From the NCBI GenBank assembly GCA_043812975.1, contig JBDRLP010000064.1, positions 1 through 12,328 of the forward strand: a stretch of 12,328 nt of DNA, given 5' to 3'. Below the pieces are notes generated by a model. It had not been told where the DNA came from, searched no databases, and was given only the letters and a program-made list of their open reading frames with translations. Positions 1-10,132 of the stretch are shown in pieces (position 1 is the stretch's first letter; each line of letters begins with the position of its first letter). A program made the position numbers and the translations under genes. Source of the DNA: Candidatus Iainarchaeum sp. (GTDB lineage: Archaea; Iainarchaeota; Iainarchaeia; Iainarchaeales; Iainarchaeaceae).

Positions 1-1230
1 CCAGATCTTTTCGGAATACCTAATGTTGAAGTAGAGGAAAACTCAGGAGTAAACTCAAACCTAATAGACCTTTGGGATTACGCTGATGATTTTGAAGATT
101 TTGATTACCAATTAGATTTCAGAATAGTAACAGAAACAAACTCGGCTTTGGTTGATTGTTTCATAGAACTTGACAGATACTTAAGCTGTGATGTTGAACA
201 AGCAAACTCAGTAGGTTCAAGCTCAGTAACTGTAGAAGTAGAAGATACAGACGGAGCAACTGATTTGGATAGTTTTACTGTTAGTGTAATCTCAAGCAAT
301 GACAGACCAAATTTAAGCGGAATACCAGATGTTAAAGTTGATGAAAACGATGGTTTCCAGAACAATATTATAGATCTTTTTGATTACTCATATGATAATC
401 AGGATTCAGATTCAGAATTAGATTTTGTAATTACAAACCAGACTAACTCTGGTTTAATAGATTGTTTTATTGATTCAGACAGGTATGTTGACTGTGATGC
501 TCCTAATAATGACCAAACAGGAACAAACACAATAACTGTAAGAGTAAGAGATACGGATGGATCAACAGATACAGATACTTTCAGAGTAATAGTAATAGAA
601 CTCGATACTAACGAAGATCCAATATTATCAGGAATACCAGATGTGGAAGTTAATGAAAACGACGGGGTTCAGAACAACATTATAGATTTGTTCCCTTATG
701 CTTCAGACAACGAAGACACTGATTCAGAATTAAATTTCGAAATTGTTAACCAGACAGACCCTGATCTTATATTTTGTGAAATAGATCAGGACAGATATAT
801 TGACTGTGACCCTCCAAGAACAAATGACACAGGAACTAACACAATTACTGTAGAAGTAACTGATAGAGATGGGGCAACTGATCAGGATACTTTCAGAGTT
901 ATAGTAAAAGATAATGGTAATGGCGGAAGCAATGATGCTCCAAGAATTAGTGGTTTGCCGGATCTTGAAATAGAGGAAAACTCAGGGCAAAGAAACAACT
1001 TGGTGGATTTACATTCATACGCTTTTGATAGCGAAGATTCTGACTCAGAATTAGATTTCAGGATTTCTAACCAGAGCAACACAAGCCTCATTTACTGTAC
1101 AATTGATCAGGATAGGTACTTTGAGTGTGAAGCTCCAAGAAATGATTATACAGGCACAAGCACAATTACGATTGAAGTAGAAGATACAGACGGAGCAACA
1201 GATTCAGATACTTTTACAATAGAAGTTACA
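1..1230 (+). repeat. Four tandem cadherin-like (Ca-binding Ig-fold) domain repeats, ~300-320 bp each
   Basis: Units start near 1, 298 (NDRP), 610 (NEDP) and 931 (NDAP). Consensus PxxxGxPxxxxxENxGxxxNxxDLxxY..D..D.D..L.F.I....C.I..DRY..C.....G...ITV.V.D.DG.TD.D.F. An exact 26-bp match links 235-260 and 1174-1199. Confidence 0.9.
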
Positions 1231-3081
1231 GCACAAAACTCAGGAGTATGCTCAGATATTGATATTGTTACAAGAACCATTTTCATTGATGAAGATGACA
1301 CAGAAACAATAAGGTTTGACATCATAAACAGAGGAGACGATGATTTCAGAGTATTTGATGCAGATGTTGATGTAACAAACAACAGCACTTATTTAGACGC
1401 AAGAGACCTTGATTTTGATACCTTAATCAGAGAAAATGATGAAGGGGAAATAGAAATAAGATTAGACAGCTCTAGTGTTTCAAGCGACAAAGAAGCAACA
1501 GTTAAAGTAAGAATCAGAGGAGAATTTGACAACGGAAGAAGTTGTAGTTTCTCAGATATTGAAGAATCGTTCAGAGTATGGATTGACAACGAAGGGTCAG
1601 GCGGAAGCACAAGCAATTCCTGTTCAGATATTGATTTTAAACAGAGAACAGTTTCAATGGATGAATCTGACACTGAAACATTCAAGTTTGATGTTGAAAA
1701 CAATGGAAATGACGATTTTAGAATTACAGATGTAGATGTTTACGAAAGCAGCTCATATTTGAGCGTAGTTGATTTTGATGACAGAGGCACAATAAGAGAT
1801 AATGATGACCTTGAACTTGAAATAGAACTAAGAAGCAACAGTGTTTCAAGCGACAAAACAGCAACTGTTTACGTTGACATAAGAGGAGAATTTGATGATG
1901 GAAAAACCTGTAGCTTTTCACAAATCGGCAGGGAATCATTCAAAGTTGAAATCGAAAACTCAGGAAGTTCAGGAAGCAGCACTAGTTGCAACGATATAGA
2001 AATTGATGCTTCAGACGTAACAATACAGGAAGACAGTTCAAGAACAAAAATAATCAAAATAAAAAATGACAACAGCAGAAACTTTGAAGTTGATAATATT
2101 ACTGTTTCAGAAAGCAATTCTTACTTTAATATCAGCACAATAAATGAACCTGAAAGAATCTCAGCTAACGATGACGGAGAACTTGAAATTAAAATATACA
2201 CAAACAGCGTTTCAAGTGACAAAAGCGGAGATGTAGAGGTAAGGGTTTCAGGAGAATTCAGCAACGGAGTAAACTGTTCAGGCTCAAAAATAACAGAAAA
2301 GTTTAAGGTTACAGTAGATAACACGGAATCAGGAAGCTCAAACAACGATGATTTTAGTGGTTCTGTAAAAGTAGACTTTTCAAACAACTTTGCAATCTTA
2401 GAAAAAGGGCAAACCAAAAACATTAATGTTACAATCAAAAATGGTTTGAATGACAGGCAATGTTTTGATTTAAGTGCTAATGATACTACAGTATTCACAA
2501 CCTCCCTATCAAGCACAGAAGTATGTATTGCTGAGAACGGCACAGAAACAATCAGCATGAGTATAACCGGAAGGAACTCAGGAACAGATAATGTAAAATT
2601 CAAGGCCGAGTATGATGGTATTTCAAAGATTAAATTTGTAAGCGTGGAAGTTCTGGACGATGGAAGCACCACAGGAGACAGACCACAAATAAGTATTCCT
2701 GATGATCCAGCAGATCTTTTCAGGGATAATGAAATAATCCTTACAAACTCAGGAACAGAATTAAGAAACGTTACAATAAGGGCTTTGAACGCACCAGAAG
2801 GAGTTAATATTGAAGAAGTTTACCTAAGCAGATGGGAAACAGGAGAAACCCTCGGAATAGAAGTTGATGTAGAACCTGGTTTTGACGGAGTTGTTGATAT
2901 TACCTTAAGCATTAGCTCAGATTCAGGCTCAATAGGAGTACCAGTAGAATTCAGAGCAAGCGAAGGTCAAGGTTTTACAGGACTAGTTGGATTGGCAACC
3001 ACTGCAGGAATGGCCATTGGATTGATTATAATCGTGGTTTTAGTCATATTAGGCATTTTAAGCATATTTTCAAAGAAATAA
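1..3081 (+). CDS. Large cell-surface protein, 5'-truncated: at least 4 cadherin-like repeats, 3 Cys-bracketed Ig-like repeats, further Ig-like domains and a C-terminal TM anchor
   Basis: Frame 1 is open from base 1 (PDLFGIPNVEVEENSG...), so the TTG at 148 is internal. ~100-aa repeats carry N(D/E)xP, DxED/DNQD and D(T/R)DG acidic motifs and C-x9-C. The C-terminus is GFTGL...MAIGLIIIVVLVILGILSIFSKK*. The protein is very Asp/Glu-rich. Confidence 0.9.
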   Translation, partial: PDLFGIPNVEVEENSGVNSNLIDLWDYADDFEDFDYQLDFRIVTETNSALVDCFIELDRYLSCDVEQANSVGSSSVTVEVEDTDGATDLDSFTVSVISSNDRPNLSGIPDVKVDENDGFQNNIIDLFDYSYDNQDSDSELDFVITNQTNSGLIDCFIDSDRYVDCDAPNNDQTGTNTITVRVRDTDGSTDTDTFRVIVIELDTNEDPILSGIPDVEVNENDGVQNNIIDLFPYASDNEDTDSELNFEIVNQTDPDLIFCEIDQDRYIDCDPPRTNDTGTNTITVEVTDRDGATDQDTFRVIVKDNGNGGSNDAPRISGLPDLEIEENSGQRNNLVDLHSYAFDSEDSDSELDFRISNQSNTSLIYCTIDQDRYFECEAPRNDYTGTSTITIEVEDTDGATDSDTFTIEVTAQNSGVCSDIDIVTRTIFIDEDDTETIRFDIINRGDDDFRVFDADVDVTNNSTYLDARDLDFDTLIRENDEGEIEIRLDSSSVSSDKEATVKVRIRGEFDNGRSCSFSDIEESFRVWIDNEGSGGSTSNSCSDIDFKQRTVSMDESDTETFKFDVENNGNDDFRITDVDVYESSSYLSVVDFDDRGTIRDNDDLELEIELRSNSVSSDKTATVYVDIRGEFDDGKTCSFSQIGRESFKVEIENSGSSGSSTSCNDIEIDASDVTIQEDSSRTKIIKIKNDNSRNFEVDNITVSESNSYFNISTINEPERISANDDGELEIKIYTNSVSSDKSGDVEVRVSGEFSNGVNCSGSKITEKFKVTVDNTESGSSNNDDFSGSVKVDFSNNFAILEKGQTKNINVTIKNGLNDRQCFDLSANDTTVFTTSLSSTEVCIAENGTETISMSITGRNSGTDNVKFKAEYDGISKIKFVSVEVLDDGSTTGDRPQISIPDDPADLFRDNEIILTNSGTELRNVTIRALNAPEGVNIEEVYLSRWETGETLGIEVDVEPGFDGVVDITLSISSDSGSIGVPVEFRASEGQGFTGLVGLATTAGMAIGLIIIVVLVILGILSIFSKK
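1249..2325 (+). repeat. Three tandem ~123-aa beta-rich repeats (C[SN]DI...SVSSDK...GEFxxGxxCS) joined by Ser/Gly linkers
   Basis: Units start at 1249, 1621 and 1987 (spacing 372 and 366 bp). The exact 18-mer agtgtttcaagcgacaaa occurs at 1474-1491 and 1840-1857. Confidence 0.9.
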
Positions 3082-3163: not shown

Positions 3164-3982
3164 ATGAAATTGTGGGGATTATTAATTTTGGTTTTAGCAT
3201 TGCTCTTATCAACAGGAGCATCAGCTTTTGTGAATAGCCTAGAAAACACAATCAGTGTTGGCGAGACAGCTTACGAATTATCTTACACAGTTGAAAACAC
3301 TTCAAACATTAAACAACCACTTACAGTCGATTATGATTTGCCAACTGATTTTGAAATTGTTAAGCAACCAAATTATGTTAACGCAAACTCAACACAGGAA
3401 ATTGTTGTAAAAATTTTACCACAGCAAGGGTTTGAAGGAACAACTTATACTGGAATGATTACAATTAACCTCGGCGGAAACAAAGCTGAAAAAAGAATTA
3501 ATGTTTCATACTTAAAAGAAAACACCTGTACTGTTGAAAGAGAAGTTTCAGTAGAGGAAGATAAGGTTACAATTTTACTTAAAAATAATTCTTACAATGG
3601 CAAAACAATGAAATTATCTGAGGTTAAGAATCTGCCAAATGATTGGGTTCTTAATACGGGTGCAAGTTTTGTTCTGAACAGTTTTGAAAAGAAAACTTAT
3701 GAACTTGAATTGCAAAAAGAAAGTTCATTTGATGGAGAACTTGAATTCGTTTTTGAATGTCAAGGAGAAACTTTTACAAACAAAGTAAAAGTAAAACATG
3801 AAGGAAATGATTTCACTGGTTTTGCAATCGCAGGAAGTGCGCTTTATAGTGTTGATTCTGAATTAATCATTGATATTTTCTTGGTTATCATAGCGGCAAT
3901 ATTACTGATAGCTTTTATCGCAAGACTAGTAAAAGTTTTGAATTCAGACGGAAAGCAGACAAAAATCGAGGTGGACCAATGA
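3164..3982 (+). CDS. Small secreted, membrane-anchored surface protein with two probable Ig-like domains
   Basis: Signal peptide MKLWGLLILVLALLLSTGASA, beta-rich body, FTGFAI motif, then TM helix LIIDIFLVIIAAILLIAFIA followed by RLVK. Confidence 0.85.
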   Translation: MKLWGLLILVLALLLSTGASAFVNSLENTISVGETAYELSYTVENTSNIKQPLTVDYDLPTDFEIVKQPNYVNANSTQEIVVKILPQQGFEGTTYTGMITINLGGNKAEKRINVSYLKENTCTVEREVSVEEDKVTILLKNNSYNGKTMKLSEVKNLPNDWVLNTGASFVLNSFEKKTYELELQKESSFDGELEFVFECQGETFTNKVKVKHEGNDFTGFAIAGSALYSVDSELIIDIFLVIIAAILLIAFIARLVKVLNSDGKQTKIEVDQ

Positions 3983-4071
3983 TTAGTTCAAACAAGTCTA
4001 GAAAAGTCCTACCGAGCACAAGCGAGGTGGACGCGTACCCCACCGACGCAACGGTGGAGGTGGACCAATGA
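3979..4071 (+). CDS. Putative 30-aa translational-coupling mini-ORF (MISSNKSRKVLPSTSEVDAYPTDATVEVDQ*)
   Basis: The ATG at 3979 is preceded by SD GAGGTG and overlaps the upstream stop (ATGA). There is no internal stop. Its TGA (4069-4071) overlaps the ATG at 4068. It is not in the ORF track. Confidence 0.45.
   Translation: MISSNKSRKVLPSTSEVDAYPTDATVEVDQ
4006..4057. repeat. Double-hairpin micro-element, copy 1 (REP-like or structured RNA motif)
   Basis: gtcc(t)acc-GAGCACAAGCGA-ggtggac, linker GCGTACC, then ccaccg-ACGCAA-cggtgg. Homologous to 9414-9467. Confidence 0.8.
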
Positions 4072-6239
4072 ACTTTTTAAAACATGCAATACTAGCAATA
4101 ACATTAATTTTAATTTCAATGACAGCAATAGCTGCATCAACTCCGGAAATCGAAGGAGTTCCAGATATTACTATTCAAATGAACGCTGATCCAATGGAAA
4201 AGTTTGTTGACCTAAGGGATTATGCAAAAGATGATTTTTCAAGCGCAGGAAATTTGTTTTACAAAATAAAAAACGAATCCAATGTACACTTAATTGATTG
4301 TTTTATTGAAGATGATTATTATGTTAGTTGTGAAGCTCCAATGAACGGAGTTTTGGGAACAAACACAATCACTGTTCAGGTTATTAACTCAAAAGGAACA
4401 GCTGATGATGATTCGTTTAATGTAAAAGTTTTTTCAGACGCAGTTCCTGAGCAGGTTATTTTCTCAGTTGACAGAGACGAAGTAATAATTGAACCAAGCG
4501 ACTCAATCAACGTTGTTCTTACAATAGAAAACCAATACCCTGAAAGAAAATGCTTTGAATTAGATGCTGAACTCGATCATGATGAAAGAGACGATATAAG
4601 GGCTGTTCCTGCAAAGGACAGTTTTTGTTTGAATGCAAACGAAAAAACAAGCCTTTCAATGACTATTACAAGCTTTGATGATGCTAGAGCAGATTTTTAC
4701 GATGTTGATGTAATCCTCGATTATGGCAACGGAAGCAGAGAATTAAGAGTAGATGTGGAAGTTGTTGATTTAGAAAACCCACTGGAACTTGTCAGAACAA
4801 GTGACTATTATGTTTGCAGAACTCCTTACACTCAGGAAATTGAAGTAAGGCTTGAAAACAATTCAAACAGATACCAGGAAATTCAATTAAACGCAGAACA
4901 CGAATTATTGATGCCTGAGTTTGAATACCCGGTAACAAGATTAGCTGCAAATGATTCTGATGAAATGGTTATGAGAATTCATGTTAACCAGACTACAGCA
5001 TTAACTGATTACACAATACCGGTTTTCATCAGAAGTGAAAATCATTTTGTTGAAAGAGACATTAAAATCAGGTTAATTGCTTGTGAAGATAATGTTTTTG
5101 ATCTTGATGTTACTCCAAACGAACAAAGAATTGAAAGAGGAGACAGGGAATTCTACACAGTAATCCTTACAAGTGCTGATGATGAAGCACAGAATGTAAG
5201 ATTAAGTGTTGATAGTGATTTACCAGCAGAACTTGAAAGTTATAATGTTTACTTGCAGGCTTATGGTGAAGTAAAACTTGACCTAGAGGTTAGAGCAAGA
5301 GAAAGCGATGATGACGGAAACCATAAGATTAAAGTTACAGCATGGAATAGCAAAGAAACAGAACAAGAAACTGTAAAAGCAATAGTTGAATCTGAACACA
5401 AACTTGAAATGATTATAGAAAATAATGACTTTGAAGCAAGAATCTGTTCAGCAACTGATGGACAGGTATTCGAAGCAAGAATCCTGAACACAGGAGACTA
5501 TGATGAAACAGTAGAACTTACACTTGCACACGTACACGAGTCTATACAGGCGATTCTCTCCGAGGATGAAATTGATATAGAGGCAGGGGGAGAGAAAACA
5601 GTGTACGTGTTCATAAATCCTTCATACGGAACACCGCTTGGAAACTACACATTAACTTTAATAGCTGAATCAGATCACGATGAACTGAGGGAACAGCTAA
5701 GATACAAAGTAGTTGAAGCAGAACAAAACGCAATCGAGGGAATAATTGAAATAACTTCATACCCAAGAGAAGTTGTTCTTGTTCCGGGTGAAGAAAAATT
5801 ACTTAGCTTTACAATAAAAAACCCGCTTTACGGAAGAATGGATAATGTAAGATTAAGATTCTTTGGAGCAAATAACGGAATAACTGTTTTTCCAATGAGC
5901 TTAGGTTCATTAGAAGCAGGAGAAAGCATTACAGTTAAGAGAACAATAAAGGCTTCAGAATCAGTATCAGAAAAAACATACGATTCAGTGATTGAAGTCA
6001 GGGCAGATGGCTATGTAACCGCTGTTCCAATGAGGATTAAAATCACAGAAACTCCGGAAAAAGAAATTGACGAAGAAGCCGGTTTACTGGCAGGATTCGC
6101 TGTTTTAGGCGGAGGAGAGATAATTCTCGGAGGGGTTATAATTATAATACTTCTCTTAGCAATAATAGTAATGTTGTCACTACTTAACAGTAACGAATCA
6201 AAAGGGACAGAATACTTAACAGAAAACAATGGGACGTGA
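4068..6239 (+). CDS. Secreted membrane-anchored surface protein: one N-terminal cadherin-like domain plus several CARDB/NEW3-like (COG1470-type) Ig domains
   Basis: SD GGAGGTG, signal peptide MNFLKHAILAITLILISMTAIA. Approximately 4143-4430 aligns with the repeats of the first gene (LIDCFIEDDYYVSCEAP...GTNTITV). Recurrent NxG...L...GExK...G.Y...v.a patterns. LAGFAV motif, then TM helix. Confidence 0.85.
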   Translation: MNFLKHAILAITLILISMTAIAASTPEIEGVPDITIQMNADPMEKFVDLRDYAKDDFSSAGNLFYKIKNESNVHLIDCFIEDDYYVSCEAPMNGVLGTNTITVQVINSKGTADDDSFNVKVFSDAVPEQVIFSVDRDEVIIEPSDSINVVLTIENQYPERKCFELDAELDHDERDDIRAVPAKDSFCLNANEKTSLSMTITSFDDARADFYDVDVILDYGNGSRELRVDVEVVDLENPLELVRTSDYYVCRTPYTQEIEVRLENNSNRYQEIQLNAEHELLMPEFEYPVTRLAANDSDEMVMRIHVNQTTALTDYTIPVFIRSENHFVERDIKIRLIACEDNVFDLDVTPNEQRIERGDREFYTVILTSADDEAQNVRLSVDSDLPAELESYNVYLQAYGEVKLDLEVRARESDDDGNHKIKVTAWNSKETEQETVKAIVESEHKLEMIIENNDFEARICSATDGQVFEARILNTGDYDETVELTLAHVHESIQAILSEDEIDIEAGGEKTVYVFINPSYGTPLGNYTLTLIAESDHDELREQLRYKVVEAEQNAIEGIIEITSYPREVVLVPGEEKLLSFTIKNPLYGRMDNVRLRFFGANNGITVFPMSLGSLEAGESITVKRTIKASESVSEKTYDSVIEVRADGYVTAVPMRIKITETPEKEIDEEAGLLAGFAVLGGGEIILGGVIIIILLLAIIVMLSLLNSNESKGTEYLTENNGT

Positions 6240-6245
6240 AACAAG

Positions 6246-9200
6246 ATGGATTACAAAATATTACTAGCAGGACTATTACTGATTACTTTTGGAGTTTATG
6301 CACAAAGTGCTGATGTTTCAGGAACTTGCGGAAACGACTCTCTTCAATGTGATATTTCACTTAACAACATGGAACTTTGTAACAATTCAACAGTTACAGA
6401 AACTTATGACGCTTATTTTAACGGAGAATACTCTCAGTGGTTTAACGTAATCCCAAGCCAAGTTACATTAGCACCTGGTGAATGTACAGACTTGAAAGTT
6501 TATACAGTTGCAAACTGTTATGCAGACCCTGGTTTTTACACAGCAAATTTAATTATTCAGGATGGAGAAACTCTATCAGTTACATGTGAACTTGATTTAA
6601 GACAAGGACACTTTATTGAGATTGAAGTTGAACCTCAAAGTCAGAACGCAACTCAGTGTGAAGAAAAAGTTTACGATTTAATTGTTACAAACAACACAAT
6701 TGTTCCAAACCAACAGATAGAAAGAGTAGACCTAAGCATTAGCGGTATACCAGAATCATGGTATGTTTTGGAAGAAGAAAGAATCCTTGTAGATAAAGGA
6801 GAATCAGAAATAGTACAACTAAGAGTTCAGGCACCTTGTGATACAGATTTCGGAGCTTACGATTTTACTGCAAGAGCAACTTTACCAAACCCTAACTTTT
6901 ATGACGAGGATAACGGAGAATACGTTCTTAATCAGGGTCAATCAATTCAGATTTTGTTAGAAACTGGTTTTGATGACAATTTACATGATGCTTGTTTAGA
7001 AATTCCAACTGAAGGAAAAATAACTATAATTAACAACGGAAAACTTTCAGACAACCTGAATGTTACTCTTGTAGGATCAAACTTTGCAAGAATTGACAAA
7101 ACTCAGTTATCTTTAGGACCTGGTGAAGAAGAAACACTAACTGTTGACTTCAGAGAAACAACAGAAGAACCAGGCGAATATGATTTTACAGTAAGAGTTG
7201 AAAGCACAGTATTTGATTATTCAACAAGCAAAACTTTTTCCTCAAATCTACAGGATTGTTTCAATGTAGAAGTAATAAAGTTAAAGGGAGAAAGTGACGT
7301 TTGTGTGGAAGATAATCCACTATACAGATTCAAAGTTACAAACAACAAAGTAAGAACTGTTGACCTTGATATAAGCATTGAAGGAATTGAAGCAGACCTT
7401 GACAAAACAAGAATTGTTGTCGGACCAGGCGAATCAGAAGAATTTGAAGCTTTACTTGATGTTAGCGATCTTGCAAGAGAAGCAAGAGTAAGCAAAACAG
7501 ATCTTGCAGTTGAAATAATCATTGATACCTCAGGTTCAATGGTTGAAAGAATCAACGGACATAACAAAATGGAAGTTGCTAAAACATCAATAATTAACTT
7601 AGTAAACAACATCAGCGAAGTTGACCTTGGATTAAGAGTATTAGGACAGGGAGAACTTTGTGAAGACTCAGAATTACTTGTTGCAGTAGATAAACTTGAT
7701 ATAGCAAGAATTACTGATGAAATTTCAGAATTAACTCCAAAAGGAAAAACTCCTTTGACACAGGCTCTAAAAGCTAGTATAGGGGATTTCCCAAGCGATA
7801 AAGAAAAAGCAATAATCCTTGTAAGTGACGGAAAAGAAACCTGTGAAGGAAACATAAGCGAAACCGCAAGAGAATTAGCTTCACAAGGCGTAATGGTTTA
7901 CTCGGTAGGATTTGACATTGATGCAGAAGGACAAGAACAATTAAAGGAAATTTCAAACAGAACTAATGGAAAATATTTCGATGCAAGAAACCCTGAAGAA
8001 CTTGTTGATGTTTTGCAGAAAATCTCACAAGAACTTGACATTGTTCCAAGTAATGAAGGAAAAAGAACCTTTACTTTGAATCTTGATTCAGATAACTTTA
8101 GTTTCGAGAAAGATTATAGTTTAACAATCAGCGATTGTTTCAACGCAACAATGGTAGCTCCAGAACTTAATTTATGTAAAGGAGTAACCAAAAGCGATGT
8201 TATAACATTAGTGAACCTTGGTTCAGAAACACAAGAATTTGATATTGACATTGGACCTAACTGGATTAGAACACCAGGAACAGTTACAATTGAACCAAAC
8301 AGCGAAGAAGTAATTCCACTAACAGCATTAGTTCCAGAAAATCCAAGCGAAGATTCATACACAATAAACGCAGTATCAGGAACCATTAAGTTAGAACAGG
8401 AAAAGAATATCAATTACCTTTCAAGCGCAAGCTGTTTTGGAATAGACTTAATATTGTTAGAACCTCAATTGGACGCAGCAACATGTGAAGGAAAGAAACA
8501 AATACTTATCATAGAAAACAGAGGAGTTGTTGAACAAGAAATAACAATAACTGCTGACAAACCTTATGTTGAAATTGTTGATGAGGTTATTAGCGTTAAA
8601 CCAGGAGAAAGAAAAGAAGTTAACTTCTTTGTAAGCCCTCCGTTTGATTTGCCTGAAACAACATTCATAAACATAATTGCAGAAACAGAAAGAGGTTTCA
8701 AAACAACTGCTCAGATCAAATTAGTGGTTTTCGGAAACCAGGATTCATTTGGTTTGGGAGAAGTTGATGTAAGAGTCAGAGACCTTAACATTACTAAAGT
8801 TGAAGGACTTGAACACAACCTTGAGGTTATGTTTGACATATATAATGATTCAAACAGAACACTGGAAGTATTCAACGTAACTTCACTTGACTATAATGCA
8901 ATTGTACAGCTAGATAAAAGATTTATACAGGCAAAAAGAACAGTCATGGCAAGAATGCTGGTCGATCTTCCTGATGAATTCACATCAAGAACAATAACTG
9001 TTCCAATAAAACTTGAAACAGATGAGGGAACTTACACAAGAAACATTGTGTTTAGTTACACCGCATCTGAAGATGGTGAACCAGTTGAGGGAGAAGTTGA
9101 TGAACCAATCAGCATCGGAACCGGATTATTTAATTTAGCAACATTGTCAACAGCATTACTTGGAGCACTCATAGTAATTGTTATTGGCTTAGTTATTTAC

Positions 9201-9413
9201 TCAGCTTACAGAGCAGTTAAGAATGATGATGAAGTTGAAGAAAAGCCAGAAGAAGACGAAGGCACTAAAGCTGTAAAGGCAAAACTGGCTGAAGTTAAAG
9301 CTAAGAAAGGCTCAAAGAAAGCAAAAAAGCCGGCGACCAAAGGGAGTCCCGCAGCAGGTGCCCGTGAGGGTGCAGGGGCTAAAAAAGCTAAAAAAAAGAA
9401 TAAGAAAAAGTAA
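6246..9413 (+). CDS. Secreted membrane-anchored Cys-rich multi-Ig protein with a von Willebrand factor A (MIDAS) domain and an acidic then Lys-rich cytoplasmic tail
   Basis: Signal peptide MDYKILLAGLLLITFGVYA. MIDAS motif DTSGS (7524-7538), T of TPL (7749) and SDG (7824-7832). GTGLF motif, then TM LLGALIVIVIGLVIYSAY. Confidence 0.9.
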   Translation: MDYKILLAGLLLITFGVYAQSADVSGTCGNDSLQCDISLNNMELCNNSTVTETYDAYFNGEYSQWFNVIPSQVTLAPGECTDLKVYTVANCYADPGFYTANLIIQDGETLSVTCELDLRQGHFIEIEVEPQSQNATQCEEKVYDLIVTNNTIVPNQQIERVDLSISGIPESWYVLEEERILVDKGESEIVQLRVQAPCDTDFGAYDFTARATLPNPNFYDEDNGEYVLNQGQSIQILLETGFDDNLHDACLEIPTEGKITIINNGKLSDNLNVTLVGSNFARIDKTQLSLGPGEEETLTVDFRETTEEPGEYDFTVRVESTVFDYSTSKTFSSNLQDCFNVEVIKLKGESDVCVEDNPLYRFKVTNNKVRTVDLDISIEGIEADLDKTRIVVGPGESEEFEALLDVSDLAREARVSKTDLAVEIIIDTSGSMVERINGHNKMEVAKTSIINLVNNISEVDLGLRVLGQGELCEDSELLVAVDKLDIARITDEISELTPKGKTPLTQALKASIGDFPSDKEKAIILVSDGKETCEGNISETARELASQGVMVYSVGFDIDAEGQEQLKEISNRTNGKYFDARNPEELVDVLQKISQELDIVPSNEGKRTFTLNLDSDNFSFEKDYSLTISDCFNATMVAPELNLCKGVTKSDVITLVNLGSETQEFDIDIGPNWIRTPGTVTIEPNSEEVIPLTALVPENPSEDSYTINAVSGTIKLEQEKNINYLSSASCFGIDLILLEPQLDAATCEGKKQILIIENRGVVEQEITITADKPYVEIVDEVISVKPGERKEVNFFVSPPFDLPETTFINIIAETERGFKTTAQIKLVVFGNQDSFGLGEVDVRVRDLNITKVEGLEHNLEVMFDIYNDSNRTLEVFNVTSLDYNAIVQLDKRFIQAKRTVMARMLVDLPDEFTSRTITVPIKLETDEGTYTRNIVFSYTASEDGEPVEGEVDEPISIGTGLFNLATLSTALLGALIVIVIGLVIYSAYRAVKNDDEVEEKPEEDEGTKAVKAKLAEVKAKKGSKKAKKPATKGSPAAGAREGAGAKKAKKKNKKK
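9330..9377. repeat. GC-rich hairpin-forming 48-bp in-frame insert (PATKGSPAAGAREGAG) in the Lys-rich tail
   Basis: 35 of 48 bases are G+C in AT-rich DNA. Hairpins ggc-GA-cc-AAA-gg-GA-gtc (9332-9348) and gtgccc-GTGA-gggtgc (9358-9373). Flanked by aaaaaagc at 9323-9330 and 9381-9388. Confidence 0.6.
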
Positions 9414-9467
9414 GTACTATCGAGCCTAAGTGAAGATAGTACGCGTACCCAACAGCCGCAACTGTTG
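9414..9467. repeat. Double-hairpin micro-element, copy 2, filling the convergent intergenic gap
   Basis: gtactatc-GAGCCTAAGTGAA-gatagtac, linker GCGTACC, then caacag-CCGCAA-ctgttg. Confidence 0.8.
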
Positions 9468-9469
9468 AA

Positions 9470-10132
9470 TTACTTTTTTCCATTTGAATAAAAATAGTTG
9501 GCCACGAAAGGACTGTTAATTAAAAGCGCTTTTTCCTGGTCTTCTGATTCTTTTTCTTGATTCAAAAACAGCATTACACTGTTTTTATCAAACACTATAA
9601 ACCTTGAACTCAAACTTGATTTTGAAATTATCTTCACTCCTTTCTTGTTTAAAGAGGCTAGTTTTTTATCAAAATAGCCTTTTTTTCTCTTCAAACCCTG
9701 CTCTGAAGAGCATATTAACACGTTTTCTTTAGTGTTTTCTAGCTGTTCAGCTATTTTTGAGTAAATATTACGCCTTCCCTCTACCACCCAGGCAGAATCA
9801 CTGAAATCAGCCTCAATAAATGCTTTTTGCTCGAGAGTTCTGGCTATAACCTTGAATTCTTCCAAATTTTTATCAAGTTCTTTTTTCTTAGCTTCAGAAA
9901 CAGATTCTACTGCAATAAGCGGTTTTACAACACGGAACTCTATTGGCTTAGAAGCACTTCTTGTAACAAAACCTTTTTTTTCAAGGGAAAAAAGCACATC
10001 ATAAACCCTAGCTCTTGGAATATTTGATGCTTTACTTACCGAAACAGCACTAGCCTTAGCATTACCCAAAAGAGCATTATAAGCACGAGCTTCATACTCA
10101 TTTAAACCAAGTTTTTTTATGCTTTCAATCAT
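9470..10132 (-). CDS. trmB: TrmB-family transcriptional regulator
   Basis: N-terminal LGLNEYEARAYNALL...SNIPRARVYDVLFSLEKKGFV...P.EF...P is the TrmB winged-HTH signature, followed by a coiled coil and a shortened effector-type domain (WVVEGRRNI, RFIVFD). The symbol indicates the family only. Confidence 0.9.
   Translation of the reverse strand: MIESIKKLGLNEYEARAYNALLGNAKASAVSVSKASNIPRARVYDVLFSLEKKGFVTRSASKPIEFRVVKPLIAVESVSEAKKKELDKNLEEFKVIARTLEQKAFIEADFSDSAWVVEGRRNIYSKIAEQLENTKENVLICSSEQGLKRKKGYFDKKLASLNKKGVKIISKSSLSSRFIVFDKNSVMLFLNQEKESEDQEKALLINSPFVANYFYSNGKK

Follow-up and report, generated by a model that had tools for sequence, protein, structure and literature searches.

Small protein-less repeats with a predicted pseudoknot are probable mobile elements of Iainarchaeum-type DPANN archaea

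Introduction

Mycobacterial interspersed repetitive units (MIRUs) are short intergenic repeats of operons that contain a small reading frame overlapping the upstream stop and the downstream start, and they occur as tandem arrays of variable number. REP sequences consist of a single short palindrome, often arranged as inverted doublets, and are inserted without target duplication. Elements of the IS200/IS605 type also insert without target duplication, at positions 3' of a fixed tetra- or pentanucleotide. We know of no SINE-like target-primed system in prokaryotes.

Other described systems show different combinations of structure, readability and junction geometry. Rickettsia palindromic elements (RPEs) are small palindromic repeats that insert in frame and are tolerated in or at the ends of genes by staying readable (PMC10969869). 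REPINs are mobilised in trans (PMC3116915). Variable target duplications of 8-514 bp are given for IS1549 and IS1634 (PMC2266710), and the HUH transposon Replitron-1 has variable duplications together with one fuzzy end, whose fuzzy sequence derives from the flank of the parent (PMC10288648). The R2 protein is described as binding a pseudoknotted RNA (PMC12222951).

The window analysed here, a stretch of archaeal DNA of 12,328 nt, contains two related sites with likenesses to several of these systems. Their protein-less hairpins, with one folding strand and conserved unpaired bases, recall REP/REPIN repeats and PATEs, and the frame layout at one of them is exactly that of a MIRU. Long variable duplications are shared with IS1549, IS1634 and Replitron-1. 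By analogy, an exact 3' junction, a variable 5' end, variable duplications, a structured 3' handle and a tRNA-linked expression trait would be at home in SINEs and stringent-type non-LTR elements. Both sites are probably (about 0.8) copies of one family of non-autonomous mobile elements, small and without proteins of their own, in DPANN archaea of the Iainarchaeum type; this figure covers a mobile insertion element of the architecture described below and not its mechanism. Literature searches turned up no account of elements of this kind from DPANN archaea or Iainarchaeota.

Architecture and predicted fold

The two copies, both read directly from the + strand, occupy 4006-4057 (copy 1, 52 nt) and 9414-9467 (copy 2). 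Hairpin 1 of copy 1 (4006-4032, + strand) reads GTCCTACC / GA / GC-ACAA-GC / GA / GGTGGAC and has a 7-bp stem, with one T bulged out, that encloses a symmetric GA/GA internal loop and, beyond it, a 2-bp GC stem capped by the loop ACAA. It is followed by the linker GCGTACC (4033-4039) and by hairpin 2 (4040-4057), CCACCG-ACGCAA-CGGTGG, which has a 6-bp stem and a 6-nt loop. Hairpin 1 of copy 2 (9414-9442, + strand) has an 8-bp stem (GTACTATC/GATAGTAC), a GA...GA loop and a CTAA apical loop; the counterpart of the bulged T of copy 1 is paired, and the 2-bp inner stem is GT where copy 1 has GC. Its linker (9443-9449) leads into hairpin 2 (9450-9467), CAACAG-CCGCAA-CTGTTG. Both copies contain ACGCGTACCC, letter for letter, and they differ by four compensatory double changes, two per stem, from C-G to A-T or T-A. 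Folding of the + strand gives two hairpins in each copy, at -28.4 kcal/mol for copy 1 and -18.0 kcal/mol for copy 2, with z-scores of -4.0 and -3.25, respectively, and none of 200 shuffles is as stable.

Pairing in the hairpins extends across the family. In an alignment of 44 copies from the host and related genomes, fitted to the covariance model, 95.9% of cells pair and 12 of the 14 pairs change on both sides; none of 500 shuffles reaches the observed value, and slid controls pair in 24-47%. Furthermore, the three linker bases that precede YACC pair with the three loop-2 bases that follow the first loop base. Among the 43 full copies (the same alignment minus one incomplete row), the linker/loop combinations are GCG/CGC (31 copies), TCG/CGA (7), CCG/CGG (2), ACC/GGT (1) and GCG/CGT (1), the sole exception being GTG/CGA at C1:19306; in the ACC/GGT sequence all three pairs have changed. 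This pairing was also examined in a plain MAFFT alignment of 41 3' modules (39 distinct) that was not fitted to the structure. Here, 99.7% of cells pair, against 18-53% in slid controls and with none of 500 shuffles reaching the observed value, and the variable position pairs in 38 of 39 sequences (GC 27, UA 7, CG 2, AU 1, GU 1, other 1).

The covariation across these 39 distinct sequences predicts that linker and loop 2 form an H-type pseudoknot, which is new here. In copy 1 the module covers 4033-4057 (+ strand), with G4033-C4034-G4035 pairing with C4049-G4048-C4047 and a stem of 4040-4045 with 4052-4057. In copy 2 it covers 9443-9467 (+ strand), with G9443-C9444-G9445 pairing with C9459-G9458-C9457 and a stem of 9450-9455 with 9462-9467. 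A second type of 3' module, GCTCTAC-stem-GTGAGCAGA-stem, could adopt the same topology through GCTC/GAGC, and no variation was seen among the four copies of it that were examined. The compact core of the element is 52-54 nt long and is made up of a hairpin, whose internal GA/GA loop is symmetric and whose tip varies, followed by the H-type pseudoknot predicted above; versions with extra modules reach about 100 nt.

Non-Watson-Crick cells identify the strand that folds. After 21 cells reflecting a register shift were set aside, 12 G-T/T-G cells were counted against no A-C/C-A cells, and the + strand is therefore the folding strand; this asymmetry tells which strand folds, not whether it does so as RNA or DNA. 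Frequent covariation in stem 2 is confined to two pairs, which are also the sole ones with both partners on third codon positions, counted in the frame of the two copies inside long genes. Coding tolerance may thus also shape the sequence of stem 2, by analogy with RPEs.

The sequence-only reading that preceded this analysis had described two double-hairpin copies with four compensatory pairs, and both are present at these positions on the + strand, far beyond chance. Its proposal that selection acts on a folded single strand agrees with the covariation in the hairpins and in the pseudoknot. The linker that it called conserved is so in sequence, but it is not a plain spacer, since its GCG pairs with CGC of loop 2, and the pseudoknot itself had been missed. 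That the motif belongs to no named family also holds for Rfam: when the whole window was scanned with a limit of E=10, eight weak matches came back, none of them at 4006-4057 or 9414-9467. Box C/D and H/ACA RNAs, guanidine-II and preQ1 riboswitches, small self-cleaving ribozymes, integron attC sites, splicing-endonuclease introns and translational bypass were dropped on sequence grounds, and the K-turn was dropped because the internal loop is symmetric.

Distribution of the family

The genome from which the window derives (1.24 Mb, 68 contigs, 35% G+C, 94.5% complete) was searched with nhmmer, using 15 seed copies as the query, and with a covariance model (R1) built from 15 sequences. With nhmmer there were 60 matches at E<=10; we examined the 44 that reach E<=0.05. 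R1 gave 56 matches at E<=1 and 45 at E<0.01, counts in which the seed copies match by construction. The host genome thus carries about 50 copies of the element, both window copies included. It is approximately 91% coding on a crude gene map.

Beyond the host, R1 matches occur in 26 of 41 related genomes, the host being counted among them. Of the 22 genomes sampled from the host's family, 19 have a match; all five congeners have one too, and few genomes elsewhere in the order do. Across a phylum-wide sample, 27 of 151 genomes are positive at E<=1e-4, and multiple copies are present only in families f1 (13 of 19 genomes) and f29 (2 of 4, with 9-10 copies each). Within the host's own family, three genomes of genus g5, which are 85-95% complete, contain no copy that R1 detects. 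The genomes sampled from f3, f20, f22 and f24 are likewise negative. Viral contigs gave no match to a strict pattern of the element; a looser pattern gave 27 loci, close to chance expectation on a rough estimate, and none of these fits the covariance model.

Insertion of the window copies

Orthologous loci were compared in the congeners G001 and G003; contiguous orthologous loci were not recovered in three other congeners. The site of copy 1 is empty in both (G001:C16 and G003:C47). In G001:C16 it reads ...AAAAATCGAGGTGGACCAA/TGAACTTTTT..., with the target present once, and by comparison the window has 89 extra nt. Of these, 23 form a 5' piece and 52 the element, and the remainder is a second target copy of 14-15 nt. 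The left target copy, GAGGTGGACCAATGA (3968-3982, + strand), is identical to the 15-mer at 4057-4071 and is single in G001:C16; the length of the duplication is given as 14-15 nt because G4057 is common to the stem and to the right target copy. The A-rich 5' piece, TTAGTTCAAACAAGTCTAGAAAA (3983-4005, + strand, 23 nt), is missing from the empty site, has no second match in the host genome and is not a decayed copy of the target (p=0.40). A loosely similar A-rich 5' piece occurs at a copy in G003.

The insertion falls on a gene boundary, which it rebuilds. Where the site is empty, the upstream stop overlaps the downstream start (ATGA). In the window, the left target copy supplies gene 3164-3982 with its final codons and its TGA (3980-3982) and also includes a duplicate of the ribosome-binding site and ATG of the next gene, while the right target copy (4057-4071, + strand) provides gene 4068-6239 with the ATG (4068-4070) and ribosome-binding site that it uses. 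The stop is thus retained on the left, and the ribosome-binding site and the start on the right. A putative open frame of 30 codons (3979-4071, + strand; MISSNKSRKVLPSTSEVDAYPTDATVEVDQ followed by the stop) spans the insertion, and its ATG overlaps the upstream stop as its TGA overlaps the downstream ATG.

Copy 2 starts immediately after the native TAA (9411-9413) of gene 6246-9413, and its site is empty in G001:C16 and G003:C60. The run of T residues 3' of this copy is also found in the empty sites, and the target duplication is at most 3 nt. A reciprocal case is provided by a G003 copy that is missing from the host genome at C45:1804. Neither window copy lies inside a gene, and both are insertions that close relatives lack. 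Four DNA sequencing runs yielded contigs of only 88-224 nt, none of which spans the site, and they have no bearing either way.

These observations favour the earlier suggestion of a non-autonomous mobile element, to which empty orthologous sites, target duplications and roughly 50 copies all point. Two of the checks proposed with it gave positive results as well: empty sites were found in relatives for both window copies, and the covariance model found 45 matches at E<0.01 in the host and was positive in 26 of the 41 genomes.

Junctions and target duplications across the genome

Flank duplications of 15-49 nt accompany 18 of the 44 nhmmer copies, by a criterion that demands a score above all 30 shuffles and a right repeat starting between -4 and +2 of the 3' end of the match; the other 26 have no clear flank duplication. 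Five repeats are perfect (15, 20, 20, 20 and 42 nt) and the others have decayed, one of them to 41/49. The right repeat begins at or beside the last base of hairpin 2, and between the left repeat and hairpin 1 there are 0-26 nt, so that the 5' side is the variable one. What is duplicated is either a gene's last 8-14 codons with its stop, or the next gene's ribosome-binding site with its start, and both neighbouring genes therefore remain intact.

The sequences between the left repeat and hairpin 1 have no evident source. Short BLAST searches with nine such 5' pieces against the host genome gave, among the matches listed, only self-matches at meaningful E-values; pieces that match nowhere else in the genome were therefore not carried over from an extant source copy. 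Five 5' pieces tested as decayed copies of the target gave p values of 0.20-0.93. About ten copies have an extra conserved 5' module, GCGAACGAAGTGAGCC.

Copies lie after stops, before starts, inside genes and before tRNAs, and the neighbouring genes are unrelated. On the strand of the upstream gene are 34 of 45 copies, and 11 are in the opposite orientation. The canonical element is, by reading, free of stops in all three sense frames. Two copies are located within long frames (C1:13700 and C1:7804), both in the same frame of the element, where they read ...VLPKADA..PTDATV....

Resident copies vary between genomes. Three gene-boundary or tRNA sites common to relatives have conserved flanks but resident copies of different module type, and orthologous copies differ by an 8-nt GCACAAGC tip with GA on both sides. 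Within the host, two unlike copies occur together at C1:19211-19363, with three repeats of one 20-nt target between them. Because shared sites carry different variants and this locus holds two unlike copies, some sites have been hit repeatedly, or resident copies have been overwritten. Differing resident copies would need repeated insertion, gene conversion or selection in place, and are not predicted by simple insertion and decay. Extra GC hairpins are present in the linker or loop 2 of some copies.

Copies adjoining tRNA genes

In four cases a copy stops flush with, or 1 nt short of, position 1 of a tRNA, the tRNAs being those for Ile, Glu, Leu and Trp. Position 1 was checked by U8/A14 numbering, as ARAGORN starts two of these tRNAs one base early. 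With 22 detected tRNAs and copies falling at random in non-coding DNA, the chance expectation for such placements is about 0.01. A fifth copy lies 3' of tRNA-Arg and duplicates the last 27 nt of that tRNA. The host genome encodes an RNase P RNA (97.1 bits, against a gathering score of 84), and cleavage of an element-tRNA precursor by RNase P would leave the exact 3' end found at the junction.

The tRNA-Glu locus is empty in G004 and filled in G000, G001 and G003. Identities at this locus are 95% and 90% for the upstream flank and 99% and 96% for the tRNA, compared with 45-77% for the element modules. Hairpin 1 and a pseudoknot are nevertheless kept in all three copies.

Search for a mobilising enzyme

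Reverse transcriptase domains (RVT_1) were detected in none of 23 genomes of the family, the host included, and in 5 of 18 genomes of other families by the same search, which covered binned genomes. Their absence from the 23 genomes argues against an RNA-to-DNA route that uses a canonical, genome-encoded reverse transcriptase. At the reverse-transcriptase loci of four relatives, no copy of the element lies alongside, and a profile search found no Cas1 in the host genome.

The sequence-only reading had looked to a REP-like HUH/RAYT or GIY-YIG enzyme encoded elsewhere. Y1_Tnp (PF01797) has no match in the host genome and none above the cut-off in the six genomes of the genus, G005 having a weak match with three stops. 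Nine of the family's 22 genomes have such genes; of four Y1 loci examined in relatives, one has an element copy within 400 nt, not at the gene ends. The single GIY-YIG match in the host is a frame of 89 codons. This enzyme assignment is thus not sustained: the genus lacks a Y1 gene above the cut-off though all five congeners carry the element, the lone GIY-YIG frame has 89 codons, and duplications reach 49 nt. The companion expectation of a nuclease or transposase gene flanked by copies fares no better, with the one Y1 locus in four that has a copy within 400 nt.

Other candidate enzymes were sought in the host genome. It has two DDE_Tnp_1 genes, each single-copy and 67% identical over 330 nt; by coordinates, no element copy in the host genome is near either of them. 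Its four tyrosine recombinases gave no lead to mobilisation. There is one TnpB, and TnpB is present in just 4 of 22 relatives of the family; neither it nor the DDE genes nor the GIY-YIG frame points to the mobilising enzyme. Pfam searches of 37 frames on contigs C26, C20 and C9 revealed a plasmid- or virus-like contig and a provirus-like region, and no Rep, reverse transcriptase or primase-polymerase was found among these frames.

Proposed mechanism and alternative explanations

An exact 3' junction combined with a variable 5' end and variable duplications is suggestive of target-primed copying from a single-stranded template, a tentative reading that we prefer but place somewhat below even odds. 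The copies would be made from a folded single-stranded intermediate of the top strand, either RNA or ssDNA, which would be joined or primed at a target nick by its exact 3' end and copied towards its 5' end. A second break at a variable offset would then give rise to the target duplication. At copies adjoining tRNAs, RNase P would release element RNA with the junction 3' end and so provide a ready supply. The pseudoknot and the copies next to tRNAs tip the balance somewhat towards an RNA intermediate. A bolder version of this mechanism, which is unlikely, makes the family a prokaryotic counterpart of SINEs that does without a canonical reverse transcriptase: a pre-tRNA leader RNA, cut by RNase P and bearing the pseudoknot as a handle, would be copied into nicked DNA. 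A nicking and polymerising activity would grip the pseudoknot at gene boundaries and leave duplications of variable length. Were this so, it would amount to a new class of RNA-templated mobile element in archaea.

Two alternatives need no dedicated enzyme or make mobility secondary. The element could be a cis-acting RNA module, as the earlier reading had offered in the alternative, and be useful to the host, for example in protecting mRNA ends, marking processing sites or coupling translation, with its structure kept by selection at each locus and its spread a secondary matter. The tRNA-Glu copies suit this explanation, as hairpin 1 and the pseudoknot persist at 45-77% identity against 90-95% for the flank and 96-99% for the tRNA, and so do the co-orientation of 34 of 45 copies with the upstream gene, the 30-codon frame of copy 1 that overlaps the neighbouring stop and start, and the GGTGG of hairpin 2, which resembles a ribosome-binding site and is paired with CCACC. 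However, the window copies are dispensable, given the same loci without them in G001 and G003, the neighbouring genes are unrelated, both orientations (11 of 45 opposite) and varied positions are used, and three g5 genomes that are 85-95% complete manage without any copy; a host-useful module is accordingly unlikely. Template switching by a DNA polymerase at stalled forks, or the retention of flaps, could instead copy an abundant GC-rich hairpin element located elsewhere and, by resuming behind the point of departure, duplicate the target. Duplication lengths of 0-49 nt, fuzzy 5' junctions, the gain and loss of hairpin modules at all scales (the GCACAAGC tip, and extra GC hairpins in the linker or loop 2) and the failure to find a transposase would all follow, but the 3' boundary is identical to the base across copies, the 5' pieces are flanks of no extant copy, most junctions show no microhomology by reading, and four copies stop 0-1 nt from tRNA position 1. 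We regard this route as quite unlikely.

The other two alternatives assign the element to a known transposase. Movement as ssDNA by a Y1 HUH transposase (RAYT/TnpA) encoded elsewhere, as for REP/REPIN or IS200/IS605-type (PATE) elements, was the main idea of the earlier reading; it would account for hairpins with conserved unpaired bases and a folding top strand, Y1_Tnp genes exist in 9 of 22 family genomes, and Replitron-1 shows that a eukaryotic HUH transposon can have variable duplications and one fuzzy end (PMC10288648). It is nonetheless very unlikely, for the host has no Y1_Tnp, none of six genus genomes has one above the cut-off although all carry the element, and the single Y1 locus of four with a nearby copy does not have it at the gene ends. 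No conserved target tetranucleotide is evident at the junctions by reading, and target duplications, which canonical members do not make, are present here. A MITE cut down from a DDE insertion sequence with long variable direct repeats is the least probable of all these explanations and hardly to be expected. IS1634/IS1549-like elements do produce direct repeats of 8-514 bp (PMC2266710), and the host has two DDE_Tnp_1 genes. Against this, the ends GTCCTACC... and ...CGGTGG form no terminal inverted repeats, the variable 5' end is unlike one defined by a transposase, and both DDE genes are single-copy, share 67% identity over 330 nt and have no element nearby. The mobile, non-autonomous element described above, of whatever mechanism, remains the explanation we prefer.

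Comparison with described elements

The family fails the defining tests of REP/RAYT elements, IS200/IS605 PATEs and DDE MITEs. Unlike REP/REPIN-RAYT systems, it combines two dissimilar hairpins with a predicted pseudoknot, makes duplications in 18 of 44 copies and has no cognate Y1 gene in the host or, above the cut-off, in the genus. Its junction sequences vary between copies and duplications occur, in contrast to IS200/IS605 PATEs, and it differs from DDE MITEs in lacking terminal inverted repeats and in a duplication length that is not fixed, ranging from <=3 to 49 nt. IS1549, IS1634 and Replitron-1 are autonomous and have their own DDE or Rep gene, whereas no partner was found for the archaeal element; moreover, its 5' pieces are not matched to any parent flank, as distinct from those of Replitron-1. 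SINEs differ in that the archaeal element has no A-tail and that no reverse transcriptase was found in 23 genomes of the host's family.

In its effect on genes the element comes closer to RPEs and MIRUs. Its absence of stops in three sense frames, by reading, and the two copies inside long frames recall the readable RPEs; RPEs are, however, bacterial, approximately 150 bp long and unrelated in sequence, and the archaeal copies lie mostly between genes. To our knowledge, neither a pseudoknot nor a long variable target duplication has been described for RPEs. Nor do we know of hairpin/pseudoknot architecture, target duplications or tRNA-abutting copies as features of MIRUs, from which the archaeal element differs in having all three. 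By analogy, the family may be described as RPE- and MIRU-like in effect, as a readable junction repeat, and as SINE-like in junction geometry. It would join the non-autonomous prokaryotic repeat elements, and its mechanism may prove new.

Significance

What makes the family unusual is a combination of traits: its 3' end is exact and its 5' end variable, duplications reach 49 nt, a pseudoknot is predicted, copies lie flush with tRNAs, and no transposase or reverse transcriptase was found. No known transposition mechanism was matched, and discovery of the enzyme could reveal a new way of moving DNA. The elements mislead annotation, since they give rise to false small frames, lengthen proteins at the N or C terminus and duplicate the ends of genes; their insertion polymorphisms are usable for strain tracking. 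For the organism itself, a tiny genome that is about 91% coding tolerates about 50 copies of an element that lands on gene junctions, and these junctions are rebuilt by the copying of the target.

Window Genes Around the Element

Copies 1 and 2 of the element lie in the window among three very large genes (1-3081, 4068-6239 and 6246-9413) that run in the same direction and encode proteins with Ig-like, FixG_C and VWA domains, which are probably surface proteins. The first of these genes is itself repetitive, carrying four coding repeats of 293 nt at a spacing of 306-321 nt (1-1232) and three more at a spacing of 366 nt (1425-2291). The end of this large surface-protein operon faces a convergent gene for a TrmB-family regulator (9470-10132, minus strand), and the 56-nt gap separating the two stop codons holds copy 2.

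Copies at tRNA Genes and Other Putative Mobile DNA

Elsewhere in the genome holding the window (G000), four copies (C20:34904-34964, C42:1345-1409, C12:19231-19288 and C52:224-283) adjoin the 5' ends of tRNA genes. They stop 0-1 nt short of the first base of tRNA-Ile, -Glu, -Leu and -Trp; ARAGORN annotates the tRNA-Ile and tRNA-Trp genes as starting a base too early.

The genome also carries other putative mobile DNA. Contig C26 (18.5 kb) resembles a plasmid or an integrated element over its entire length, with genes for ArdC-N, two integrases, a PD-(D/E)XK nuclease and an SLT lysozyme; C20:12000-26000, which has genes for a large terminase, a cement protein, an integrase and a Shedu SduA-like protein, looks like a provirus. 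A single intact TnpB (OrfB_IS605 plus a Cas12f-like TNB domain) is encoded at C9:1157-2374, and no Y1 TnpA was found in the whole genome. A distance of 1.5 kb separates this TnpB gene from one copy of the element, which does not sit at the gene's ends.

Modular Variation of the Element

About 10 copies in G000, among them those at C4:2433, C18:3019, C57:13197, C27:75961 and C12:19216, bear an additional conserved 5' module, GCGAACGAAGTGAGCC(A), upstream of hairpin 1; this module could fold into a small stem with tandem G-A closing pairs. Other variation concerns the 3' module. Some copies (C25:51390-51445, C27:75961, C34:14318-14375 and C52:224-283) have a second type, GCTCTAC-stem-GTGAGCAGA-stem, where pairing is possible between GCTC and the GAGC of the loop; the two types share a pseudoknot layout but differ in sequence.

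At C1:19211-19363, two copies unlike each other stand in tandem, and the 20-nt target ATGGAGGCCAAATAATGATT occurs three times, between them and on either side. The first of this pair is the sole exception to the pseudoknot pairing. Finally, the orthologous copies at C34:14904-14959 and in a related genome (L027, G002:C115) differ by an 8-nt tip, GCACAAGC, bordered by GA at either side, and this small apical hairpin looks as if it had itself been acquired or lost as one unit.
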